Assembly (NCBI GenBank): GCA_051439425.1
Contig: JBFRWD010000177.1
Span: 1-45,329 of the forward strand
Direction of reading: 5' to 3'
Length of the DNA: 45,329 nt
Source of the DNA: Synechococcus sp.
GTDB taxonomy: Bacteria > Cyanobacteriota > Cyanobacteriia > Thermostichales > PCC-7336
Shown piece by piece: positions 24,005-45,073 of the stretch. The position numbers were made by a program, and so were the translations under genes. The notes beneath the pieces are model-generated. The model searched no databases and was not told where the DNA came from. It was given only the letters and a program-made list of their open reading frames with translations. Position 1 is the stretch's first letter. Every line of letters begins with the position of its first letter.

Positions 24005-24499
24005 TGGTTTATTCGGCTTGCGATGAGAGCATATCGTCAAGCAGCAACTATTTGGCAGCAAGCCAACCAGCTTTTAAGTCTTTCTGTTCAGCCTTGTTTC
24101 ACTGCGTTACGGGTGGTTTGTCCGTTGCGGCACTAAAACGCGGATCGGGTTGCAGGCCACTAAACAAAAGATCATCTAGATATCTTGTAAGTATTGGGCT
24201 GCATGCAACTGCGATCGTCCGCTGGGAGACAACATTCCATCGTCTCAACATCCCCAATACGTCAGCCTCTGGAAATCAGCGAGGACTCATAGATGAGGAC
24301 GACTCGATTGGAATGATTCTTTAATGGCATGTTCCTGCAGATTTGCAAACCCATGCCTAGCTTGGAAAATTCTCAGCAACATCTCAGGACTGCCAACAAG
24401 CGGTGCTGTAGTTTAGACACCTGTAGGACTGTTGTGTACAACTGATTATCGGTTCGATCTTCATCGATTCGAGTCACTCTCTCAGTTCCTGGCAGTACC

Positions 24500-24832
24500 A
24501 TGACCGACTATTACAAAGCCGAACATCTCCCGAATTTTAGCCACATTGGTGAAGGCAACCCCGAATTAGCAGAACAGTTCTTTGGGTATTACGGAGCTGT
24601 GTTTGCAGAGGGAGCGCTGAGTAAACGGGAAAAGGCGCTGATTGCTCTAGCAGTATCTCATGCTGTGCAATGTCCATACTGTATTGATGCTTATACCCAA
24701 GAATCGCTGCAGCAGGGATCGGATTTAGAGGAGATGACCGAAGCGGTGCATGTGGCATCGGCAATCCGAGGCGGGGCATCCCTGATTCACGGACTGCAAA
24801 TGCTCGATCGCGCCAATCAGTTGAGTATGTAG
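24500..24832 (+). CDS. AhpD/carboxymuconolactone decarboxylase-like protein, arsenosugar-cluster-associated type
   Basis: REKALIALAVSHAVQCPYCIDAY (CxxC); directly upstream of an ArsS-like gene. Confidence 0.88.
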   Translation: MTDYYKAEHLPNFSHIGEGNPELAEQFFGYYGAVFAEGALSKREKALIALAVSHAVQCPYCIDAYTQESLQQGSDLEEMTEAVHVASAIRGGASLIHGLQMLDRANQLSM

Positions 24833-24857
24833 CCTGCTCTTTGAGAGGCATCTTGCA

Positions 24858-26120
24858 ATGGAGGACCAATTGGATAGGTCATTAAGCAACGACAGGGTGA
24901 CCGATATCTCGCAGGTCGATTCCCCCGACAGGTCTTCGCCAGAGTCACAAGGTTCGCCAGAGTCGCCAGAAACACCAGAGTCACCAGAAACAGCCCAGCC
25001 AAAGACTGTCGGACTGGAACCGCTCGCTCTGGACATTCAGGCATCTGGCTCCAACCGAGTGCTATCTCTATTGCGACGGCGATCGCCTCTAGCGGCTCCC
25101 GAACGGCAGCTACAGGACTTAGATGCAGTTGACTTATCCTCAGCGAAGCAAACGGGAGATTTTGCTTGTGCCTTAGCTGCTTGCGAGCACGATCCCCTCG
25201 CTCCCACCCAACTGGAAATTTTCCAAATTAACATCGGCAAGTTGTGCAACATGACCTGCCGTCACTGTCATGTTGATGCTGGCCCCGATCGCACAACAGA
25301 AAATATGGATCGGGTCACAGTAGATGCCTGCTTGGCAGCTCTGGATCGGACGGATGCCCATACGGTGGATATCACAGGCGGGGCACCGGAACTTAATCCC
25401 CATTTTCGATATTTGGTGGACGAATGCGCCCAGCGGGGTAAGCATGTCATCGATCGCTGTAATCTCACCGTTCTGCTATTGCCCAATCAGCAAGATTTAC
25501 CGCAGTGGTTGGCAGAGCGTGGCGTGGAAATTGTGTGCTCGCTGCCCCACTACCGCCAGCGCAACACCGACAAACAGCGGGGGGATGGTACCTACGAAAA
25601 ATCAATCGAGGTACTGAAACGCTTGAATCAGGCGGGGTACGGTCAGGGGGATGCCCGACAGCGTCTCACCCTGATGACCAATCCAGTCGGAGCCTTTCTC
25701 GCAACCAATCAACAGCGGGCAGAGCAGGAGTGGAAGCGAGGGCTAGAGCGCAATCATGGAGTGACGTTCGATCGCCTCATTGCCCTCAATAACATGCCTA
25801 TTTCTCGATATCTGGAATGGCTGGAGCAGTCTGGAAATTTGCAGAGATATATGGAATTACTCGTCAATTCCTTTAACCCCGCTACAGTTGACGGTCTGAT
25901 GTGTCGCAACACGGTATCGATTGGGTGGGACGGCCGGATTTACGATTGTGACTTCAATCAAATGTTGGCATTGGATGCCCGTTTAAGGGACGGCAGCACC
26001 ACAACCATTCATGATTTCAATCCCCAGCAGTTCGCCCAGCGTCACATTGTCACGGCGCGCCATTGTTTTGGGTGTACCGCTGGAGCGGGAAGTTCTTGTG
26101 GTGGAGCAACTGAGGAGTAA
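24858..26120 (+). CDS. arsS: Arsenosugar biosynthesis radical SAM protein ArsS (Cys-rich C-terminal domain)
   Basis: QINIGKLCNMTCRHCHVDAGP (CxxxCxxC), DITGGAPELNP, IDRCNLT, LMCRN, YDCDFNQ and C-terminal HCFGCTAGAGSSCGG. Confidence 0.88.
   Translation: MEDQLDRSLSNDRVTDISQVDSPDRSSPESQGSPESPETPESPETAQPKTVGLEPLALDIQASGSNRVLSLLRRRSPLAAPERQLQDLDAVDLSSAKQTGDFACALAACEHDPLAPTQLEIFQINIGKLCNMTCRHCHVDAGPDRTTENMDRVTVDACLAALDRTDAHTVDITGGAPELNPHFRYLVDECAQRGKHVIDRCNLTVLLLPNQQDLPQWLAERGVEIVCSLPHYRQRNTDKQRGDGTYEKSIEVLKRLNQAGYGQGDARQRLTLMTNPVGAFLATNQQRAEQEWKRGLERNHGVTFDRLIALNNMPISRYLEWLEQSGNLQRYMELLVNSFNPATVDGLMCRNTVSIGWDGRIYDCDFNQMLALDARLRDGSTTTIHDFNPQQFAQRHIVTARHCFGCTAGAGSSCGGATEE
24936..24992 (+). repeat. 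9/18-bp coding tandem repeat (SPE/TPE) in the ArsS N-terminal extension
   Basis: tcgccagagtcacaaggt tcgccagagtcgccagaa acaccagagtcaccagaa aca. Confidence 0.75.
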
Positions 26121-27049
26121 TGGAGAAGCAGGTGATGGAGGTACGAGGTATGGATGACGCCAATAAAGATGGCATGACCGAAGCTGGGTGTGGATTGCCG
26201 CCTCAGCCGCAGTCGCTGAGTAAACAGGTGGTAACGATCCCTGACTCGGTGAACAGTGTTGCCCTCTGCGGTGGGCCTTACAGCAATTTTGTAGCGGTCG
26301 AGCAGTTTTTACAGGAAACGTCGTCACTTGAATGGCGATTTTGCTTGGGGGATATGGGTGGGTTTGGGGCATTTCCCGATCGCACCATCAACCGTCTCAG
26401 GGAAGCGGGCGTCATTGCTTTACAAGGAAACTATGACTATTCGGTGGGGCATGGCGAGCGAGACTGTGGCTGTGGCTATACCGATGCACGCGATCGCCAG
26501 TTCGCCCAAATCAGTTACGACTATACGCTGTCGAAAACATCGGTAGATAACCGCGAGTGGCTGCAATCGTTGCCCCAACTGATTGAAGTTCATTGGCGTA
26601 CCCAGCGACTGCTCCTCTGTCACGGCAGTCCCGACCGCGTCAACGAATTTGTCTGGGAAACAGAGACCGGAGATGCGCAAATCGAACGGTGGCTCGCAGA
26701 GCTTGGCCTGCAGGGGATCTGCGCCACTCATTCAGGCTTGCCTTGGACGCGACAGCTCACGAAAGGTTTTTGGTGCAATGTTGGTGTGTTGGGTCGACCG
26801 CCTCACAACGGTCAGCCCCATGTTTACTACGCTCGGCTGGATTATTCTGCCGCAGTCAATGCTCTTGTGCCTCAACTAGTGCCCATGACCTATGACACTA
26901 GTGCAGCGATCGCTGCCATGCGCTCCGAAGGCTTGCCGGAGGAATTTTGCGACAGTTTGCAATCGGGTATTTGGACGACGTGTGCAGAAATTTTGCCTGC
27001 AACTGAGCGGGAAGTGCGGCCCCGAATCGCGGCAGTTATCCAAACATAG
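26120..27049 (+). CDS. Calcineurin-like metallophosphoesterase-fold protein, Cys-rich, with degenerate motif I
   Basis: LGD, QGNYD and CHGSP motifs; GGPYSN in place of DxHxN; DCGCGY. Its start overlaps the arsS stop (TAATG). Confidence 0.82.
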   Translation: MEKQVMEVRGMDDANKDGMTEAGCGLPPQPQSLSKQVVTIPDSVNSVALCGGPYSNFVAVEQFLQETSSLEWRFCLGDMGGFGAFPDRTINRLREAGVIALQGNYDYSVGHGERDCGCGYTDARDRQFAQISYDYTLSKTSVDNREWLQSLPQLIEVHWRTQRLLLCHGSPDRVNEFVWETETGDAQIERWLAELGLQGICATHSGLPWTRQLTKGFWCNVGVLGRPPHNGQPHVYYARLDYSAAVNALVPQLVPMTYDTSAAIAAMRSEGLPEEFCDSLQSGIWTTCAEILPATEREVRPRIAAVIQT

Positions 27050-27131
27050 CTGCGAGCGGAATGACTCGGACTCGACTCCACTCTGGAGTGGTGTACACAT
27101 CCCCGCACTTTTGAACAAACGTAAGGTGAAC

Positions 27132-28121
27132 ATGCTTAAGTCAAGTGCCAAGAATTCGACATTCTCTCGACAAAGGCCTTCATTCGGATCGGTGCAGCTA
27201 GGTCGCAGTTGGAAGGGAGCTGGCATTGCTGCCATATCGGCGATCGCGCTAGCTGCTTGCGGCGGTACGTCAACGACGACGTCGACAGATACCTCTGGGG
27301 ATGCTGCAAACGCGATCGAAGTCTTGGAATTTGGGGTGGGGCCTTATTTTCCAACTCCCAACGAAACCCGCGAGCAGTTCGAGCCCCTGTTTGAAGCCAT
27401 TGCTGCCGAAGCTGGAGTGGAAGCCAAAGTGGTGGTAACAGAAGACTGGATCGGCATTTCCGAGGCGCTGCGATCCGGCACGCTGGATGTTGCGTGGTTG
27501 GGGCCGTGGGGATTTGTCCTGGCAGAGCACAACGAGCCGTCACTAGAGGCGATCGCCACAGTCAAATACAACGAAGAGCCTATCTACTACTCAATTTTGA
27601 TGGCCAAGGCGGATGCTCCATTCGATTCCTTGGCAGAAGCGATTGAGTTGAGCGCAGCCAGCGACGAACTGCTCTCCCTGAGTCTGGCGGATGTGGGTTC
27701 TACTTCCGGCTGGCTCATCCCCAGTGCCGAATTTTTGGAGCTAGAAGTCGATCCCGAAACTGCCTTTGATTACAGCGAAGGGGCCAGTCATGCAGCCCAG
27801 GCGATCGCGGTACTTAGCGAACAAGTGGATATCGCCTCCGACTTCGACCGCAACTTGGACGTGCTGGACAGCACCGGTCGCATCGAACGGGAAGAGTTGA
27901 AGATAGTCTGGCAGTCCGATCCACTCCCCAACGACCCGATTGTGGTGCGCGGAGGGTTGCCTGAAGAGATCAAGACCGCCCTGCAGGACGCTCTTATCAG
28001 CATTACTCCAGAAGACGCCGAGACTCTCCTACCCGAAAACTACACCGGTTTTATCTCCTCCGACGGCAGCAACTATCAGCCCATTCGCGACGCCGGTTCC
28101 AGCCTCGGTAAATTGCAGTGA
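27132..28121 (+). CDS. PhnD/PtxB/HtxB-family ABC substrate-binding lipoprotein
   Basis: Lipobox LAAC, GSTSG, GASH and PND motifs; SD-like AAGGTG before ATG 27132. Confidence 0.9.
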   Translation: MLKSSAKNSTFSRQRPSFGSVQLGRSWKGAGIAAISAIALAACGGTSTTTSTDTSGDAANAIEVLEFGVGPYFPTPNETREQFEPLFEAIAAEAGVEAKVVVTEDWIGISEALRSGTLDVAWLGPWGFVLAEHNEPSLEAIATVKYNEEPIYYSILMAKADAPFDSLAEAIELSAASDELLSLSLADVGSTSGWLIPSAEFLELEVDPETAFDYSEGASHAAQAIAVLSEQVDIASDFDRNLDVLDSTGRIEREELKIVWQSDPLPNDPIVVRGGLPEEIKTALQDALISITPEDAETLLPENYTGFISSDGSNYQPIRDAGSSLGKLQ

Positions 28122-28987
28122 CGGTTAGACAACCGCCCCTTGTTCCACCCTCTGCCCCCGAAACTGAGGTGCGGCTGAACGATCGCCTGGATGCCATTTT
28201 GACAGCCGATCGCCAGCGCAACCAGGGGGTAGGGGTCTTACTGCGCCGGGGGTTCTGGACGGCGGTGCTGGTGGCAGTACTGGTGGCCAGTGCCCGACAA
28301 GCTGAGGTTTCCCTGGCAGAATTCCTGGAAGGGATTCCCCGGCTCACTCGCTGGGTGTCGGAACTGTGGCCCCCAGACTTTGCCGAGCTACCATCGTTTG
28401 CGGTCGCAACCTGGGAAACACTGGCAATCGCGATCGTCGGCACTCTGGTGGCGGCTGTATCGGCCCTACCCTTATCCCTAATCGTGGCCCGTAACGTTAC
28501 TCCAGTTCAGTGGTTGGGGGCTCCCGTACGAGGGGTGCTAAACCTGTTGCGGGGGATCGACACGGCGATTTTTGCCCTGTTCTTTGTCGCTGTGGTAGGA
28601 CTGGGGCCATTTGCTGGTGTGTTGGGGGTAATGTGCCACACCACCGGCTCGATGGCCAAACTGTATGCCGAGGTACTGGAGACGTTGCCTGCCGAACCCT
28701 TGGAGGCCATGGAAGCGACGGGGACCGATCGCTGGCGAACGATTGCCTTTGCCGTGTTGCCGGAAGCGTTGCCAGCTCTAGTCGGTATTAGCCTGTATCT
28801 CTGGGAAGTTAACGTGCGCTCCTCTGTGATTTTAGGAATCGTAGGGGCGGGAGGCATTGGCTACGAGTTATCCGTCAGCTTGAAATTACTGGATTTTGGA
28901 CGATTAACGACGTTGCTAATCCTGATTTTGGTGATGGTGACGACCATCGATGGAATCAGTGCGTGGTTGCGACATCGTTTGAAGTAA
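28118..28987 (+). CDS. phnE: PhnE/PtxC-family ABC permease
   Basis: ETLAIA, VGLGPFAG, KLYAE, NVRSS..LGIVGAGGIG motifs; GTGA overlap with the upstream gene. Confidence 0.9.
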   Translation: MTVRQPPLVPPSAPETEVRLNDRLDAILTADRQRNQGVGVLLRRGFWTAVLVAVLVASARQAEVSLAEFLEGIPRLTRWVSELWPPDFAELPSFAVATWETLAIAIVGTLVAAVSALPLSLIVARNVTPVQWLGAPVRGVLNLLRGIDTAIFALFFVAVVGLGPFAGVLGVMCHTTGSMAKLYAEVLETLPAEPLEAMEATGTDRWRTIAFAVLPEALPALVGISLYLWEVNVRSSVILGIVGAGGIGYELSVSLKLLDFGRLTTLLILILVMVTTIDGISAWLRHRLK

Positions 28988-29046
28988 CTCTTGGTCATCC
29001 CCAATCTGAATATCCCGGTTGAACTCACAGCAGACTTTCTATCTAC

Positions 29047-29817
29047 ATGTTTCGAATTAGTGGCTTGACCAAACAATATGGCGATCGCACGGTACTCAAA
29101 GATATTGGTGTCGAGATCGCTCCGCGCACGTTCACAGCAGTGTTGGGGCCGAGCGGGGCTGGCAAAACGACGTTGATGCGCTGCTTAATGGGATTGGTGC
29201 AGCCAGATCGGGGAGAGATTTGGTATGGAGATCGCAATATCGTCCGGGCCCGCCCGCAGGATATGCGCGGTATTCGCCGCCAGATGGCGGTGGTGGCGCA
29301 GCAGTTTAACTTGGTGCGTCGTCGCACTGCTCTCGATAATTGCTTAGCCGGACGCTTGCCGGAACTTCCCTTGTGGCGCTGTTTGCTGAGCTGGTTTCCG
29401 CAGCCCCTCAAACGGGATGCCCTAATGGCCTTAGAACGAGTGCAATTGCTGGATGTGGCCTTGCAACGAGCCGATCGCCTCTCAGGAGGACAGCAACAAC
29501 GGGTCGCGATCGCCCGCGCTATCACGCAGAAAGCCTGCATCATCCTAGCCGATGAGCCCATTTCCAGCCTCGACCCAGAATCCGCTCGCATCGTTCTGGA
29601 CTTACTACGTTCTCTGTGCGATCGTGACGGCATCACAGTGATCTGTAACCTGCATCAAGCTTCGCTGGCACTTGACTATAGCGATCGCATCTTGGGGATG
29701 AAATCCGGGCGGTTAGTGTTGGATAAAGCGGCGGCGGATGTGACGGAGTTCGACCTCGATAGCCTGTATCAATCAAGCCAGCAGTGGGCGATCGGGTCAC
29801 GTGTTCTCGGACGGTGA
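29047..29817 (+). CDS. phnC: PhnC/PtxA-family ABC ATP-binding protein
   Basis: [40 protein letters not shown] and NLHQ motifs. Confidence 0.9.
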   Translation: MFRISGLTKQYGDRTVLKDIGVEIAPRTFTAVLGPSGAGKTTLMRCLMGLVQPDRGEIWYGDRNIVRARPQDMRGIRRQMAVVAQQFNLVRRRTALDNCLAGRLPELPLWRCLLSWFPQPLKRDALMALERVQLLDVALQRADRLSGGQQQRVAIARAITQKACIILADEPISSLDPESARIVLDLLRSLCDRDGITVICNLHQASLALDYSDRILGMKSGRLVLDKAAADVTEFDLDSLYQSSQQWAIGSRVLGR

Positions 29818-29922: not shown

Positions 29923-31005
29923 ATGAAACTATTGAACTCGCCTCTCTCCCCTATGACCTTTCCGACCTATACGCCACCGCTGTTCCTGCGCGACGGCATG
30001 GCCATGACCGTCTATGCGGCCCTGAAAACCGGCAAAACCTGGGAGCAGCAGACAGTTGAAGCCGAGCCAGACTACCGAGAGCATATATTCCAAGGAGCTG
30101 GGGAGACGCCAATTTTTGCTTGGGTGGCGATGCCTCAGCGACCGCGCGGCACGTGGGTGGCAACTTACGGAATTACCGGAACGCTGAATAATCAGTGGTT
30201 TTTGCGGGTGTTGGGTCGCAAAGCCTTTGCCCAAAATTACGCAGTAGTGCTGTTTGATTGGCGGGCTCACGGCAAAACCGCAGAATTGTCTCCCACCCTG
30301 ACCTCCGATGGGTTGTATGAGGGAGAGGATTTTGTTTGTATTGCGGAACAGTCTAAAGCGTTGGGATGTCCAGCACCATTTTGGCTAGCGGGTTATTCGC
30401 TGGGGGGACAGTTGGCTCTGTGGGGGGCGAAGGCGTCTCAGAGCATAGACCCGAGCGATCATCCTAATCTGCAGGCGGATGAGATTGGTGGAGCAGCAGC
30501 CATTTGTCCCAGTTTAGAATCTCACCGATCGCTCTCATACTTAGTCAGAAGTCCGTTAGGAAAAAAGCTAGAACAACGGATTGCTCAAGAGCTCAAGAAG
30601 CTAGCCTGGCGCATTCACGATGCCCATCCGGGGGCGCTAGATGCAGCCGCGATCGAGCGAGCGACCAGTATTTGGGGATTCGATCGCGAGCTAGTCATTC
30701 CTCCACTAGGATTTCCCACTGTTGAGGATTACTACGCCGCCACAAGTCCGTTGTATATCCTGCCGCAGCTCGACAAACCCACTTTAATTATCTATGCCGA
30801 GGACGATCCGATGTTCGATCCGACGCTTGTGCCTGATTTGCGCGCAGCTTGCGATCTCAATCCCGCCCTCACTTCAGTCATCACTCAATTTGGCGGTCAC
30901 GTTGGATATATCAGCAGCGCTAACTGTCAGAAAGATGCCGGGGATACCGATCCGTGGTGGGCATGGAACCGGGTTTTAGATTGGGCAACAACGACAGATG
31001 CATAA
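29923..31005 (+). CDS. YheT-like alpha/beta hydrolase
   Basis: FDWRAHG, nucleophile GYSLGG, AEDDP and GGHVG motifs. Confidence 0.88.
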   Translation: MKLLNSPLSPMTFPTYTPPLFLRDGMAMTVYAALKTGKTWEQQTVEAEPDYREHIFQGAGETPIFAWVAMPQRPRGTWVATYGITGTLNNQWFLRVLGRKAFAQNYAVVLFDWRAHGKTAELSPTLTSDGLYEGEDFVCIAEQSKALGCPAPFWLAGYSLGGQLALWGAKASQSIDPSDHPNLQADEIGGAAAICPSLESHRSLSYLVRSPLGKKLEQRIAQELKKLAWRIHDAHPGALDAAAIERATSIWGFDRELVIPPLGFPTVEDYYAATSPLYILPQLDKPTLIIYAEDDPMFDPTLVPDLRAACDLNPALTSVITQFGGHVGYISSANCQKDAGDTDPWWAWNRVLDWATTTDA

Positions 31006-31192
31006 CTTGCTAGCTGTGCCAGTGCCCTCGAAGGACAAACAGACAATCGATTGGCAACTCACACTACATCTTGCTATCCCAATTTAGACTTCAATAGGTC
31101 TACCTAAGACAGTCATTGTCACAAACCAACGGTGACGAACTTAAGGGACCGGTCTGCCAGAACACTGGCCTGTTTATCTCTGCTCGTACTAC

Positions 31193-36535: not shown

Positions 36536-37524
36536 TCAAGCACTAGCCGGTACGGGCGATTTGGACGAATTGGCTTCTGCCATCATGTACTCCCGCGTGT
36601 TGACCATCGCGTCCACCAGGCGATCCATTTGTTGGCGATCGTGCAAAGCGTTAGCGGTAATGCGCAAGCGAGGTTTAGCGATAAACCAAATCGGTGAAAC
36701 CCATACTTGGTAGACATCAAGCATCTGTTGGGCAAACACTTTGGGATTGAGATCGGTTGGTAGGAGGACTGGAATGACGTTGGTTTCCCCAATAGCCTTG
36801 AATCCCGCGTCCTGAAGGCGCGATCGCAGATATCGGGTATTGGCTTGCAAGGTTGCCACCCGTTCGGGATGCTGGCGCACCTGGCGAATACTTTCTAACG
36901 CAGCAGCAGTTGTGGGCGGGGGTAGGGAAATGGTGCCGATAGAGGTGGGAGATACATCCAAAAGTCGATTAGGGCCTGGGAGTGGCTGCTAATCGCTGCA
37001 CCAGCCGATGCCGCAAACTTGGAAAATGTCGTCATGATGATGGGCACCAAACCGCGATCGATCGCCTGTTGGGGGTGCAGATCGAAATGTTCGTAGATTC
37101 CGCCACCGCTGGCACCAATGGCACCGCTGGCATGAGCCTCGTCCATGACCACGACGCTACCGGGATAGTCGGCCATTACATCCAGCATCTGCGGCAGCGG
37201 CACAATGTCTCCATCCATGGAAAAGACAGAATCGGAGATGACCACAATGCGATCGTCCGGTTTGAAATAGCGCTGCAATTTCCGGGCCAAATCGTTCATA
37301 TCGCAATGTCGATACGCCTTCACCCGCACGTTAGGACTGTAGCCAAACATCTTTCCCGAGCGGTTCCCGGCATTGACCACTGCCGACACAATGCAACCGT
37401 GATTGAGCACGTCTGTCAGGATCAGGGTTTCTCGTTTGTGCTCGAATCCCGGTATGGGCATTGCCAAGTGGCAAAAACCATCCATCAATGCCTGCAATGC
37501 CATCCACGCATTCAAGAACAGTTG
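36536..37524 (-). pseudogene. Alpha-oxoamine synthase (Spt/BioF/Kbl-type PLP enzyme), 5'-truncated and frameshifted
   Basis: LNHGCI, YRHCD, VFSMDGD, DEAH, TTFSK (PLP Lys) and RLRIT motifs, split over two frames at ~36960 (1-nt deletion). No N-terminal domain upstream of QLFLNAW. Confidence 0.85.
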
Positions 37525-37697
37525 CTTGATCCAGAGAATCCTCCTCATTACCAGCAGTAGGATATGCACCTATCGCTGGTAGATGGGTCAAGTCTACGGT
37601 CTAAAATCCATGTAGACTCTATATCTATAGCTTATGGCTAATTTTTCTGGATTGACGGCCAGATTTTGTCCGTGGGGTGTTTCAAGGTGAATGCAGC

Positions 37698-43929: not shown

Positions 43930-44247
43930 TATTGCAAGAGAACAGGCAGTTAGGACATATTGGTTGGATTGATGAGTGTCATCTCGCTGATGCCAGCCGC
44001 CTACAGCATGGACCTACGCCTGAAAGTCCTCAAAGCAATCGAGCGAGGAGAAAAGAAAAGCCACATCAGCCGTACGTTCGGCATCAGTCGCAACACCATC
44101 GACCTCTGGCTCAAGCAACGAGACCAATCGGGCTCCATTGCCCCCAAGTCGTACAGTCGTAGGGGACCAGCCCCCAAGATTGAGGACTTGGAAGCCTTTC
44201 GAGAGTTTGCTACGGCTCACGGCCACCTGACCCAACAACAGATGGCA
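43930..44247 (+). mobile_element. IS630-family element, left end and N-terminal HTH ORF, truncated by IS6
   Basis: TA-TTGCAAGAGAACAGGCAGTTAGGAC; ATG 43990 MPAAYSMDLRLKV...LTQQQMA, then an abrupt switch to the IS6 end. Confidence 0.9.
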
Positions 44248-45073
44248 GGGCTCTGTCAAGGTAACAGGCATGCATCCCAAGCTGGAAGAATAGGAAGATG
44301 GATAATCGACCTGTTTCCTACTCTCGTCATCGCTTTCCAGCTGTAGTCATCAGTTACGCAGTTTGACTCTACTATCGCTTCTGTTTGAGCTACCGAGATG
44401 TGGAAGAACTGCTGGCTCAGCGAGGCATCACAGTCAGCTATGAAAGCATCCGTCGCTGGTGCCACAAGTTTGGTCAATCCTACGCCAATCAACTGAAACG
44501 CCGCTTTGCTCGTGCAGGCGACAAATGGCATCTCGATGAAGTACGCGTCGTCATCAATGGCGAAGTGCATTGGTTGTGGAGAGCGGTTGACCAGAACAGT
44601 CGAGTCCTCGATATGCTGGTGCAAAAGCGACGGAATAAGAGAGCTGCCAAGCGCTTATTCCGGCGTTTGCTTAAAGGACATGGATACGTTCCTAGAGTCT
44701 TAATAACGGATAAACTGAGAAGCTACTCTGCCGCTCATCGAGAAGTGATGCCAAGTGTCGAACATAGACGACACGAGGGATTGAACAATCGAGCTGAATC
44801 TTCTCATCAGCCCACAAGATATCGAGAACATCAGATGAAGCGATTCAAATCTATGGGTAGTAGCCAGAGGTTTCTATCAGCCTTTGAACCAATCAGAGCT
44901 CACTTCTGCCCCAGACGACATTTGATGTCGGCGAATATCTATCGAGAGACGTTGCGATCGCGCTTCCAAACTTGGAACCAGATCACCCTTGTATCTGCGA
45001 CTGCTTGATTGAGGTCAATTGCAGCGGAGTTGCTGACTCGCTGATTGTTTGCCGACTTAACGTGACGAAGCCC
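44248..45073 (+). mobile_element. IS6-family element with a nonsense-mutated transposase (44298-45008)
   Basis: RHRFP...YAV*LYYRF.LSYRDVEE, WHLDE, WLWRAVD, ITDKLRSY and NNRAESSH motifs. Imperfect inverted ends: GGGCTCTGTCAAGGTAA and reverse-complement GGGCTTCGTCACGTTAA. TGA at 44364-44366. Confidence 0.9.

Follow-up and report, generated by a model that had tools for sequence, protein, structure and literature searches.

The window analysed here is the 45,329-nt contig JBFRWD010000177.1 of a Synechococcus sp. genome (assembly GCA_051439425.1). Its central feature is a cluster of six genes, all on the + strand within positions 24500–29817, which encode, in this order, an AhpD-like protein, the radical S-adenosylmethionine (SAM) enzyme ArsS, a metallophosphoesterase-like (MPE-like) protein, and the binding protein, the PhnE permease and the PhnC ATPase of an ATP-binding cassette (ABC) importer (Table 1). 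The first-pass annotation of this DNA had described the six genes as co-oriented and tightly packed, with overlaps at 26120 and 28118, and had found the window devoid of arsM, ars resistance, C–P (carbon–phosphorus) lyase, ptxD and htxA genes; family scans of the window agree with this description throughout. The overlaps consist of (i) a TAATG at 26118–26122, where stop and start of the ArsS and MPE-like genes share 1 nt, and (ii) a GTGA at 28118–28121, where the binding-protein and PhnE genes share 4 nt. In cluster order, the intergenic spacing is 25, −1, 82, −4 and 59 nt. The 82-nt value follows from the start of the binding-protein gene, which is most likely the ATG at 27132, preceded by AAGGTG and followed by a signal peptide with the lipobox LAAC, rather than the start of the open reading frame (ORF) at 26892. 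Seven terminator-like hairpins were found in the region, none of them in a gap of the cluster; the first one past it lies at 31156–31169, behind an alpha/beta hydrolase gene conserved in a single genome of the same genus (G003). A promoter scan was uninformative (one found, on the − strand, versus 4.9 expected). Altogether, the six genes form one operon-like, conserved unit that is probably co-transcribed.

Table 1. Features of the importer–ArsS region (positions in the window)
Feature	Position	Strand	Basis or remark
Operator-like imperfect inverted repeat CTGTTGTGTACAACTG, 16 nt	24429–24444	+	~55 nt 5' of the first gene; putative function
AhpD/CMD-like CxxC protein, 110 aa	24500–24832	+	TIGR04169, PF02627, CPYC
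ArsS radical SAM enzyme, 420-aa ORF	24858–26120	+	TIGR04167, DUF3641, CNMTCRHC
MPE-like Cys-rich metallophosphoesterase-fold protein, 309 aa	26120–27049	+	Predicted fold, Foldseek
PhnD-family substrate-binding lipoprotein, mixed HtxB/PtxB pocket signature	27132–28121	+	PF12974, TIGR01098
PhnE-type ABC permease	28118–28987	+	TIGR01097, 264.3 bits (cut-off 216.7)
PhnC-type ABC ATPase	29047–29817	+	TIGR02315, 282.4 bits (cut-off 266.1)
Alpha/beta hydrolase, possible last gene of the transcription unit	29923–31005	+	PF00561/PF12697; outside the conserved core

The AhpD-like protein, whose CxxC motif reads CPYC, scores 174.6 bits against TIGR04169, the model of an 'arsenosugar biosynthesis-associated peroxidase-like protein' (cut-off 120), and 66 bits against PF02627. 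The ArsS protein scores 420 bits against TIGR04167 (equivalog cut-off 300), matches Radical_SAM and DUF3641 (178.9 bits), carries the CX3CX2C motif as CNMTCRHC, ends in the Cys-rich tail CFGCTAGAGSSCGG and is 67–69% identical to the products of arsS genes that adjoin an NF038099 ArsM gene. Judging from these matches, it is a member of the ArsS family and is predicted to adenosylate trivalent dimethylarsenic; ArsS works by a radical mechanism (bioRxiv 10.1101/2024.02.01.577332). The conserved part of ArsS begins near residue 79. The ~78 residues encoded ahead of it (24858–25090) form a Pro/Ser/Glu-rich extension with SPESPETPESPE repeats, of which G003 is the only other carrier; the start codon is uncertain.

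The name metallophosphoesterase-like, given to the third protein in the first-pass annotation, is borne out by its predicted fold but neither by its Pfam scores nor by its metal ligands. The protein stays below the gathering scores of Metallophos (PF00149, 19.1 bits versus 21.5) and Metallophos_2 (PF12850, 18.6 versus 27), has no match among the NCBIfam models at E ≤ 10, and finds its nearest solved proteins by sequence in 3rqz (E 3.6e-5) and 1nnw (E 8e-5). An AlphaFold model built on 33 homologues (predicted local distance difference test score 90.6, predicted template modelling score 0.88) has 362 Foldseek matches in the PDB at E ≤ 0.001, headed by the SapH Ap4A hydrolase/phosphodiesterase 3qfm (E 1e-16, template modelling score 0.82 on the target) and followed by 3rqz, 1nnw and 2gju, which points to a calcineurin-like fold. 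The full dimetal ligand set of metallophosphoesterases consists of D-x-H, GD, GNH[DE], H and GH. The MPE-like protein has only part of it: it shares the predicted fold of SapH/YfcE-type enzymes (3qfm, 3rqz, 1nnw) and retains D78, N104, H168 and H204, but, unlike them, it has lost the D-x-H of motif I (G52 and Y54 instead) and the His of motif III (GNYD for GNHD) and gained four cysteines. These cysteines (C75, C116, C118 and C288) and the four retained ligands are invariant in the 33 homologues, C167 being nearly so. With these losses and the four invariant cysteines, the protein is predicted to be a phosphoesterase-fold protein whose site is remodelled, degenerate and rich in cysteine. Its family comprises 1650 proteins at E ≤ 1e-5, has no NCBIfam model, and keeps an identity of ~55–63% over cyanobacterial, Oligoflexus and Burkholderiales records.

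The binding protein scores 166.6 bits against PF12974 (cut-off 27) and 144.6 bits against TIGR01098 (cut-off 112), and it remains below the cut-offs of the PhnD equivalog TIGR03431 (165.6 versus 261.1) and of the selenate-transporter model (72.6 versus 250); a 67%-identical relative is annotated as a 'putative selenate' binding protein. Among solved relatives, HtxB (5me4) comes first with 199 bits, in line with the label HtxB-like used in the first-pass annotation, and is followed by PhnD (101 and 93 bits), PtxB (62), ArrX (27) and AioX (22.5). AioX and ArrX (6esv, 6x6b), which serve in arsenite and arsenate sensing, respectively, belong to the same PhnD-family superfamily and indicate that this fold can serve arsenic oxyanions, but they are distant from the window's protein and are sensors working with two-component systems, not partners of PhnE and PhnC.

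According to Bisson et al. (2017, PMC5700983), HtxB binds hypophosphite with an affinity of 0.56 µM, with no detectable binding of phosphate or methylphosphonate up to 10 mM. In the same paper, W52, N128 and F158 of HtxB are described as replacing Y55, S130 and H160 of PtxB, which hold the third oxygen of phosphite, and a D206–R178 ion pair as taking the place of the PtxB Y208 cap. When the pocket positions are counted on the HtxB alignment, with the numbering checked by W52 and the D206N/D206A variant chains, the window's binding protein has W106, S190, H220, R240 and D268. These residues are invariant in the five proteins encoded by full clusters and recur in metagenome PhnD proteins encoded beside MPE-like genes, which are 33% identical to the window's. 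The alignment thus predicts a mixed pocket, in which the Trp and the Asp–Arg pair of HtxB are retained and the Ser and His of PtxB occupy the third-oxygen site. Compared with the HtxBCDE hypophosphite importer of Pseudomonas stutzeri (5ME4), the window's system has the equivalents of Trp52 and of the Asp206–Arg178 pair and the same importer architecture, but Ser and His for Asn128 and Phe158, a genome without htxA, and a linkage to ArsS and the MPE-like protein. Compared with the PtxABC phosphite importer, it has the equivalents of S130 and H160, but only 62 bits to PtxB, a Trp for Tyr55, an ion pair for the Tyr208 cap and no ptxD. Bisson et al. also mention an uncharacterised 'Hybrid?' class, which by description combines PtxB and HtxB features in a like manner, although its three proteins (from Bradyrhizobium BTAi1, Methylopila and Lutibaculum) are alphaproteobacterial.

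Two further points bear on the ligand. The mature binding protein contains no cysteine, which makes it an improbable thiol ligand of As(III). Moreover, the first-pass annotation had proposed dimethylarsinate as the ligand on the grounds that it shares the two-oxygen geometry of hypophosphite, an argument at odds with the pocket: of W52, N128 and F158, only the Trp is kept, and the PtxB-type Ser and His at the third-oxygen site speak against any ligand with strictly two oxygens, dimethylarsinate among them.

The linkage of importer and ArsS was also looked for in other genomes. Of 61 related genomes, 33 encode an ArsS that exceeds the cut-off, and 33 arsS loci were fetched from 32 genomes besides the window's, their neighbour genes being called by a crude longest-ORF rule, with antisense ORFs in GC-rich contigs discarded by eye. 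The full six-gene order is present in four of these loci, belonging to G001 and G003 of the window's genus and to G009 and G021 of another family (two families and three genera); in the complete G002 genome, likewise of this genus, only AhpD–ArsS is found. Neighbours in the 33 loci include an AhpD-like gene in 11 and ArsM in five, both together in none. An MPE-like gene is present in eight of the 61 relatives and lies beside the binding-protein gene in seven of them; in the eighth (G036, locus L119), it lies beside an unannotated 470-aa gene.

The clade of the binding protein (E ≤ 1e-60) is represented in 19 of 401 evenly sampled cyanobacterial genomes. The importer genes of this clade are found (i) in the full six-gene cluster in the window genome (G000), G001, G003, G009 and G021; (ii) in the order MPE–binding protein–PhnE(–PhnC) in G005, G006, G122 and G193; (iii) in the order binding protein–PhnE–PhnC, then a 35%-identical MPE paralogue, in G311; (iv) 27 nt downstream of an ArsS gene of another clade (40% identity) in G292; (v) directly behind an ArsR-family regulator gene in G260; and (vi) with none of ArsS, MPE-like and ArsR in G049, G081, G117, G233, G365, G367 and G386, the flanks being short for G117 and G367. 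Thus, the neighbourhood survey that the first-pass annotation had proposed for this clade yields an ArsS neighbour in six of 19 genomes, in two arrangements, an MPE-like neighbour in 10 and an ArsR neighbour in one, but none of these in seven.

A search with two very narrow peptide patterns from the binding-protein alignment returned 10 loci, four of which repeat clusters already fetched. Locus L090 has the order ArsR, phosphate-type porin, binding protein, PhnE, kinase-like protein, non-ArsS radical SAM protein and PhnC, and in L091–L093 the transporter stands alone. Within L090:6981–14355, the kinase-like gene (APH/choline kinase Pfam) and a 276-aa radical SAM gene are placed between PhnE and PhnC, and a two-domain rhodanese is encoded on the opposite strand; past the SAM motif, this radical SAM protein has no likeness to ArsS or to the radical SAM protein encoded beside distant MPE-like genes (see below). 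No PtxD, HtxA, C–P lyase or Pho gene was found beside any annotated importer of the clade.

A metagenome scan gave 57 MPE-like loci. In 12 of them (L127–L134, L139, L166, L170, L176), an ArsS-family gene (43–53% identical) starts no more than ~100 nt after the MPE-like gene, with a DUF3641 match of 151 bits in the one protein scanned; most of these contigs encode a VTT/DedA membrane protein upstream, and all 12 are without PhnDEC. Three loci have the order PhnD–PhnE–MPE, one is a cyanobacterial MPE–phnDEC locus, and 41, many on short contigs, have neither neighbour. A MerA-like flavin disulfide reductase is encoded upstream in four metagenome loci and a DUF3047 protein downstream in three. AhpD-like genes were found neither in the 57 loci nor in L119, so the AhpD/ArsS/MPE triad is not universal. 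A distant MPE branch (~45% identity), represented by about 10 loci (including L146, L147, L155, L156, L158, L162, L163 and L167), lies behind a flavin disulfide reductase-like gene and another radical SAM gene, whose ~300-aa product best matches the Rv1681 family of NCBIfam (103 bits, below cut-off). In the metagenome and cyanobacterial neighbourhoods taken together, an MPE-like protein and a radical SAM enzyme recur in the company of a thiol/disulfide redox protein and a membrane transport protein. It is the MPE-like gene that connects the importer half of the cluster with the ArsS half, since it adjoins either of them. The wiring of the importer to ArsS claimed by the first-pass annotation therefore stands in part: the six-gene order in four more genomes, the adjacency of ArsS in G292 and the position of the MPE-like gene speak for it, whereas the seven solitary importers do not. 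This recurrence of the linkage in several arrangements supports a functional coupling of the importer with the ArsS module, one that is not universal; it supports the idea that the importer works with, or at least is regulated with, that module.

The window genome is 96% complete, and neither the genome-wide search for arsM proposed by the first-pass annotation nor those for htxA and ptxD found any of them. ArsM is absent according to the NCBIfam models (best scores of 25.9 bits versus 400 for NF038099, 27.2 for NF040538 and 56.9 for NF008823) and to a genome-wide tblastn in which 10 ArsM-like ORFs of related genomes served as queries (best 43 bits). There is no TauD-family match that could be HtxA, and no candidate for PtxD, the only 2-hydroxyacid dehydrogenases being SerA-size/SerA-like or LdhA/VanH-like (beside GAPDH). 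The absence of C–P lyase, by contrast, is true of the window and not of the genome: contig C120 encodes PhnJ together with a canonical phnCDE set that includes a true PhnD (325 bits on TIGR03431). Apart from C120, a PhnD-like/PhnC/PhnE/PhnM set lies at the start of contig C178 (L109:598–4475), and contig C51 (L108:4070–5002) encodes a binding protein above the cut-off of the 'putative selenate ABC transporter' model (354 bits). Acr3 is encoded on contig C4.

The Synechocystis-type pathway, in which arsM adjoins arsS, resembles the window's system in its ArsS (a radical SAM enzyme with DUF3641, above the equivalog cut-off) but differs in having an ArsM, which the window genome lacks; the neighbours of ArsS are here the AhpD-like protein, the MPE-like protein and the ABC importer. 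The first-pass annotation had concluded that the importer stands in for ArsM. The distribution of ArsM argues otherwise. ArsS is present in 324 of the 401 cyanobacterial genomes and the arsenosugar-type ArsM (NF038099) in 145, four of which are off the ArsS list; about 183 of the 324 ArsS-positive genomes (56%) are thus without this ArsM, which makes ArsS without ArsM the commoner state. In the two families that host the five full clusters, ArsM is found in none of six (f1) and none of 23 genomes (f2), and it was likewise not found in G001, G009 and G021. The absence of ArsM is therefore a lineage trait, and a common one. Conversely, five of the 19 importer genomes do have ArsM (G117, G193, G233, G292 and G311), versus 136 of the 305 other ArsS-positive genomes (Fisher p = 0.15, kin not being independent), so that complementarity between the importer and ArsM is not shown. 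G003 combines the full cluster with a divergent ArsM-like methyltransferase, 27% identical to ArsM over its length. With ArsM missing from more than half of the ArsS genomes, there must be more to ArsS than the accepted arsM-to-arsS route. Note that G002 (L177:1943–3226) and G003 (L178:1758–2948) encode closely similar methyltransferases of 396–427 aa, the one in G002 having the arsinothricin-type ArsM model as best match (310 bits, below the cut-off of 500); the window genome has no match to either.

As regards control of the cluster, the inverted repeat upstream of the first gene is identical in three genomes of the genus (G000, G003 and G001), and in G009 and G021 its position is occupied by another palindrome, GACATGT..ATGTC-like. 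The gap between the MPE-like and binding-protein genes contains, at 27075–27105, the palindromes CCACTC-TG-GAGTGG and GTGTACAC, neither of which is conserved in the same gap elsewhere. A TGTACA core, found both 5' of the operon and in this gap, was considered as a common operator and rejected, as the gap copy is unconserved in other genomes. A crude scan for Pho boxes (a cyanobacterial consensus of two YTTAAYYW repeats, three mismatches allowed) gave 13 matches in the window versus 16.4 expected, with none near 24325–24499. The conserved six-gene core encodes no regulator. The ArsR proteins encoded next to the importer in L090 and G260 both have an N-terminal Cys and a C-terminal Cys–Cys pair, a pattern reminiscent of one As(III)-sensing class of ArsR.

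Elsewhere in the window, an aminotransferase class I/II gene on the − strand (36536–37569) is split into adjacent ORFs of 141 and 224 aa, which a frameshift or an assembly error may explain, and ORFs of IS630-type helix-turn-helix and DDE (IS240-type Pfam) transposases lie at the right end (43960–45008).

The reading to which we lean, tentatively and short of thinking it probable, is that the six genes constitute a unit whose importer, of the HtxB/PtxB branch, brings in a small oxyanion on which the ArsS module acts, most likely an arsenic species. The ABC importer would take up an oxyanion that is small and either tetrahedral or pyramidal; arsenite, methylarsonate and dimethylarsinate are the most likely candidates, and we rank none of them firmly above the others. 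Thiol reducing power would come from the AhpD-like CxxC protein, whether to reduce a pentavalent arsenical or to restore enzyme cysteines, and trivalent arsenic would receive the 5'-deoxyadenosyl group of SAM through ArsS. As for the MPE-like protein, presumably descended from adenosine-nucleotide phosphoesterases and with cysteines in place of part of the dimetal site, it may bind the adenosine product that carries the arsenic, or process it, or else pass on the trivalent substrate. Apart from the family assignment of ArsS, we infer each of these enzymatic steps, as well as the co-transcription, the cargo and the direction of flow from the importer to ArsS. What speaks for an arsenical cargo is the linkage to ArsS and the MPE-like protein, the ArsR-type neighbours, the lack of a P-oxidising partner, the existence of arsenic binders in the PhnD family and the response of SAR11 phnD to dimethylarsinate (see below). 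Arsenite is presumably a near-isostere of phosphite, and arsenite and methylarsonate are equally open as cargo. A bolder proposition, which we consider doubtful, is that some cyanobacteria and other bacteria take in arsenic purposefully: an importer of high affinity, dedicated to an arsenic oxyanion and descended from phosphite/hypophosphite binders, would feed a conserved AhpD-like/ArsS/MPE-like module that makes adenosyl-arsenic compounds without ArsM.

Several observations weigh against an arsenical cargo or against a common task of importer and ArsS. HtxB, PtxB and PhnD, to which the binding protein is closer than to any other characterised protein, bind P compounds, and the residues for the first two ligand oxygens are all typical of the family, so that by sequence a P ligand fits at least equally well. 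The genome has C–P lyase and three further PhnD-type systems, which places the use of reduced P within its repertoire. Seven of the 19 importers of the clade stand alone, and the co-occurrence of importer and ArsS in all 19 importer genomes (Fisher p = 0.03, kin not being independent) is weak evidence, given that ArsS is present in 324 of the 401 genomes. Even methylphosphonate does not fit the HtxB pocket; by analogy, dimethylarsinate would call for a far roomier one than is known in the family. Finally, NCBIfam lists an ArsM/AhpD fusion family (NF041537), so the AhpD-like protein may serve enzyme thiols instead of reducing an imported arsenical.

These points lead to the alternative that fares best, namely that the cluster combines P scavenging with arsenic detoxification. 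The importer would take up phosphite, hypophosphite or a small phosphonate, there would be no metabolite common to importer and ArsS, the two would be co-located and co-regulated because arsenate enters the cell when phosphate is scarce, and the MPE-like protein would be a P-releasing esterase. This is a possibility to be taken seriously, although we would not bet on it. It accounts for the 199 bits to HtxB, for the PF12974 and TIGR01098 scores above cut-off, for the Ser and His that in PtxB are phosphite ligands and for the solitary importers; PhnJ and PhnM of the genome could process imported phosphonates, and phosphite-binding PhnD importers without an adjacent ptxD are a recognised marine group (group 3) in Bisson et al. 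(2017, PMC5700983). It fits less well with the lack of PtxD and HtxA in the genome and beside the annotated importers, with the lack of Pho-box-like sites near the cluster and the ArsR type of the regulators adjoining the importer, or with the G292 locus, where ArsS directly abuts the binding protein. Nor does the MPE-like protein look like a P-releasing esterase: motif I and the His of motif III are gone, and its gene adjoins ArsS in 12 contigs free of PhnDEC.

The model of the first-pass annotation, in which imported dimethylarsinate replaces the product of ArsM, is reduced by the Cys proteins and ends up in arsenosugars, appears unlikely to us. Canonical arsenosugars need two methyl groups, which a cell without ArsM must import, and dimethylarsinate, disfavoured by the logic of the pocket, is yet the sole cargo that would give canonical dimethylated arsenosugars without ArsM; the absence of any type of ArsM from the window genome, and of ArsM from G001, G009 and G021, fits this model, as does the 67–69% identity of ArsS to ArsM-adjacent homologues. 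There is also a precedent of a kind: in Giovannoni et al. (2019, PMC6426599), SAR11 is reported to take up and oxidise dimethylarsinate (DMA), the addition of DMA to raise phnD expression 2-fold, and the authors suggest that PhnD carries methylarsenic analogues, which is proposed there, not shown. The SAR11 protein resembles ours as a PhnD-type binding protein proposed for methylated arsenic, but it differs in its demethylation-for-energy context, the lack of a link to ArsS and, presumably, its PhnD subgroup. The Ser and His at the third-oxygen site, in place of the Asn and Phe of HtxB, and the exclusion of even methylphosphonate by HtxB count against dimethylarsinate; so do the lineage-wide absence of ArsM in f1 and f2, its frequent absence from ArsS-positive genomes, and the coexistence of the full cluster with a divergent ArsM-like protein in G003 and of importer linkage with ArsM in G292 and G193.

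It is improbable that the module acts on an oxyanion other than an arsenical, be it a reduced-P species with formation of a C–P bond or an antimony or selenium species. Such a role would agree with the other radical SAM gene beside the distant MPE branch in about 10 loci, with the non-ArsS radical SAM gene inside the transporter operon of L090, with the NCBIfam 'Rv1680 family SBP-like protein', which is of PhnD type, and with the 'putative selenate' name of the 67%-identical relative, but ArsS is 120 bits over its equivalog cut-off and close to ArsM-adjacent homologues, the selenate model is matched at only 72.6 bits, and we know of no non-arsenic chemistry of this kind. Least probable of all is a fortuitous adjacency of two unrelated operons, for which the 82- and 59-nt gaps could hold internal promoters and seven of the 19 importers are unlinked, but which is already disfavoured by a linkage that recurs in at least four gene orders, in cyanobacterial and non-cyanobacterial DNA, and by the start/stop overlaps that join both halves to the middle genes.

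The components of the cluster are thus of known kinds, and their wiring is new to the literature searched: a full-text search, with most subscription journals outside its scope, found no paper on a linkage of ArsS with PhnDEC or on an organoarsenic importer tied to arsenosugar synthesis, in agreement with the first-pass annotation, which knew of no such importer. The wiring matters because about four-fifths of the sampled cyanobacterial genomes have ArsS, and over half of these ArsS-positive genomes are without the methyltransferase presumed to provide its substrate. With phosphite as the cargo, the binding protein would represent a new specificity class between HtxB and PtxB, in an operon that co-regulates P and As functions. 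With an arsenical as the cargo, the uptake of arsenic would be favoured by selection and not be accidental, which would change how the production of arsenosugars and arsenolipids in P-poor waters is read. A purposeful import of arsenic, if true, would make this system the first importer of organic or inorganic arsenic wired to biosynthesis, and would give MPE-like proteins a function as partners of radical SAM enzymes that form As–C bonds. The MPE-like family is in itself a second and wider lead, since its genes are recurrent neighbours of radical SAM genes in general.

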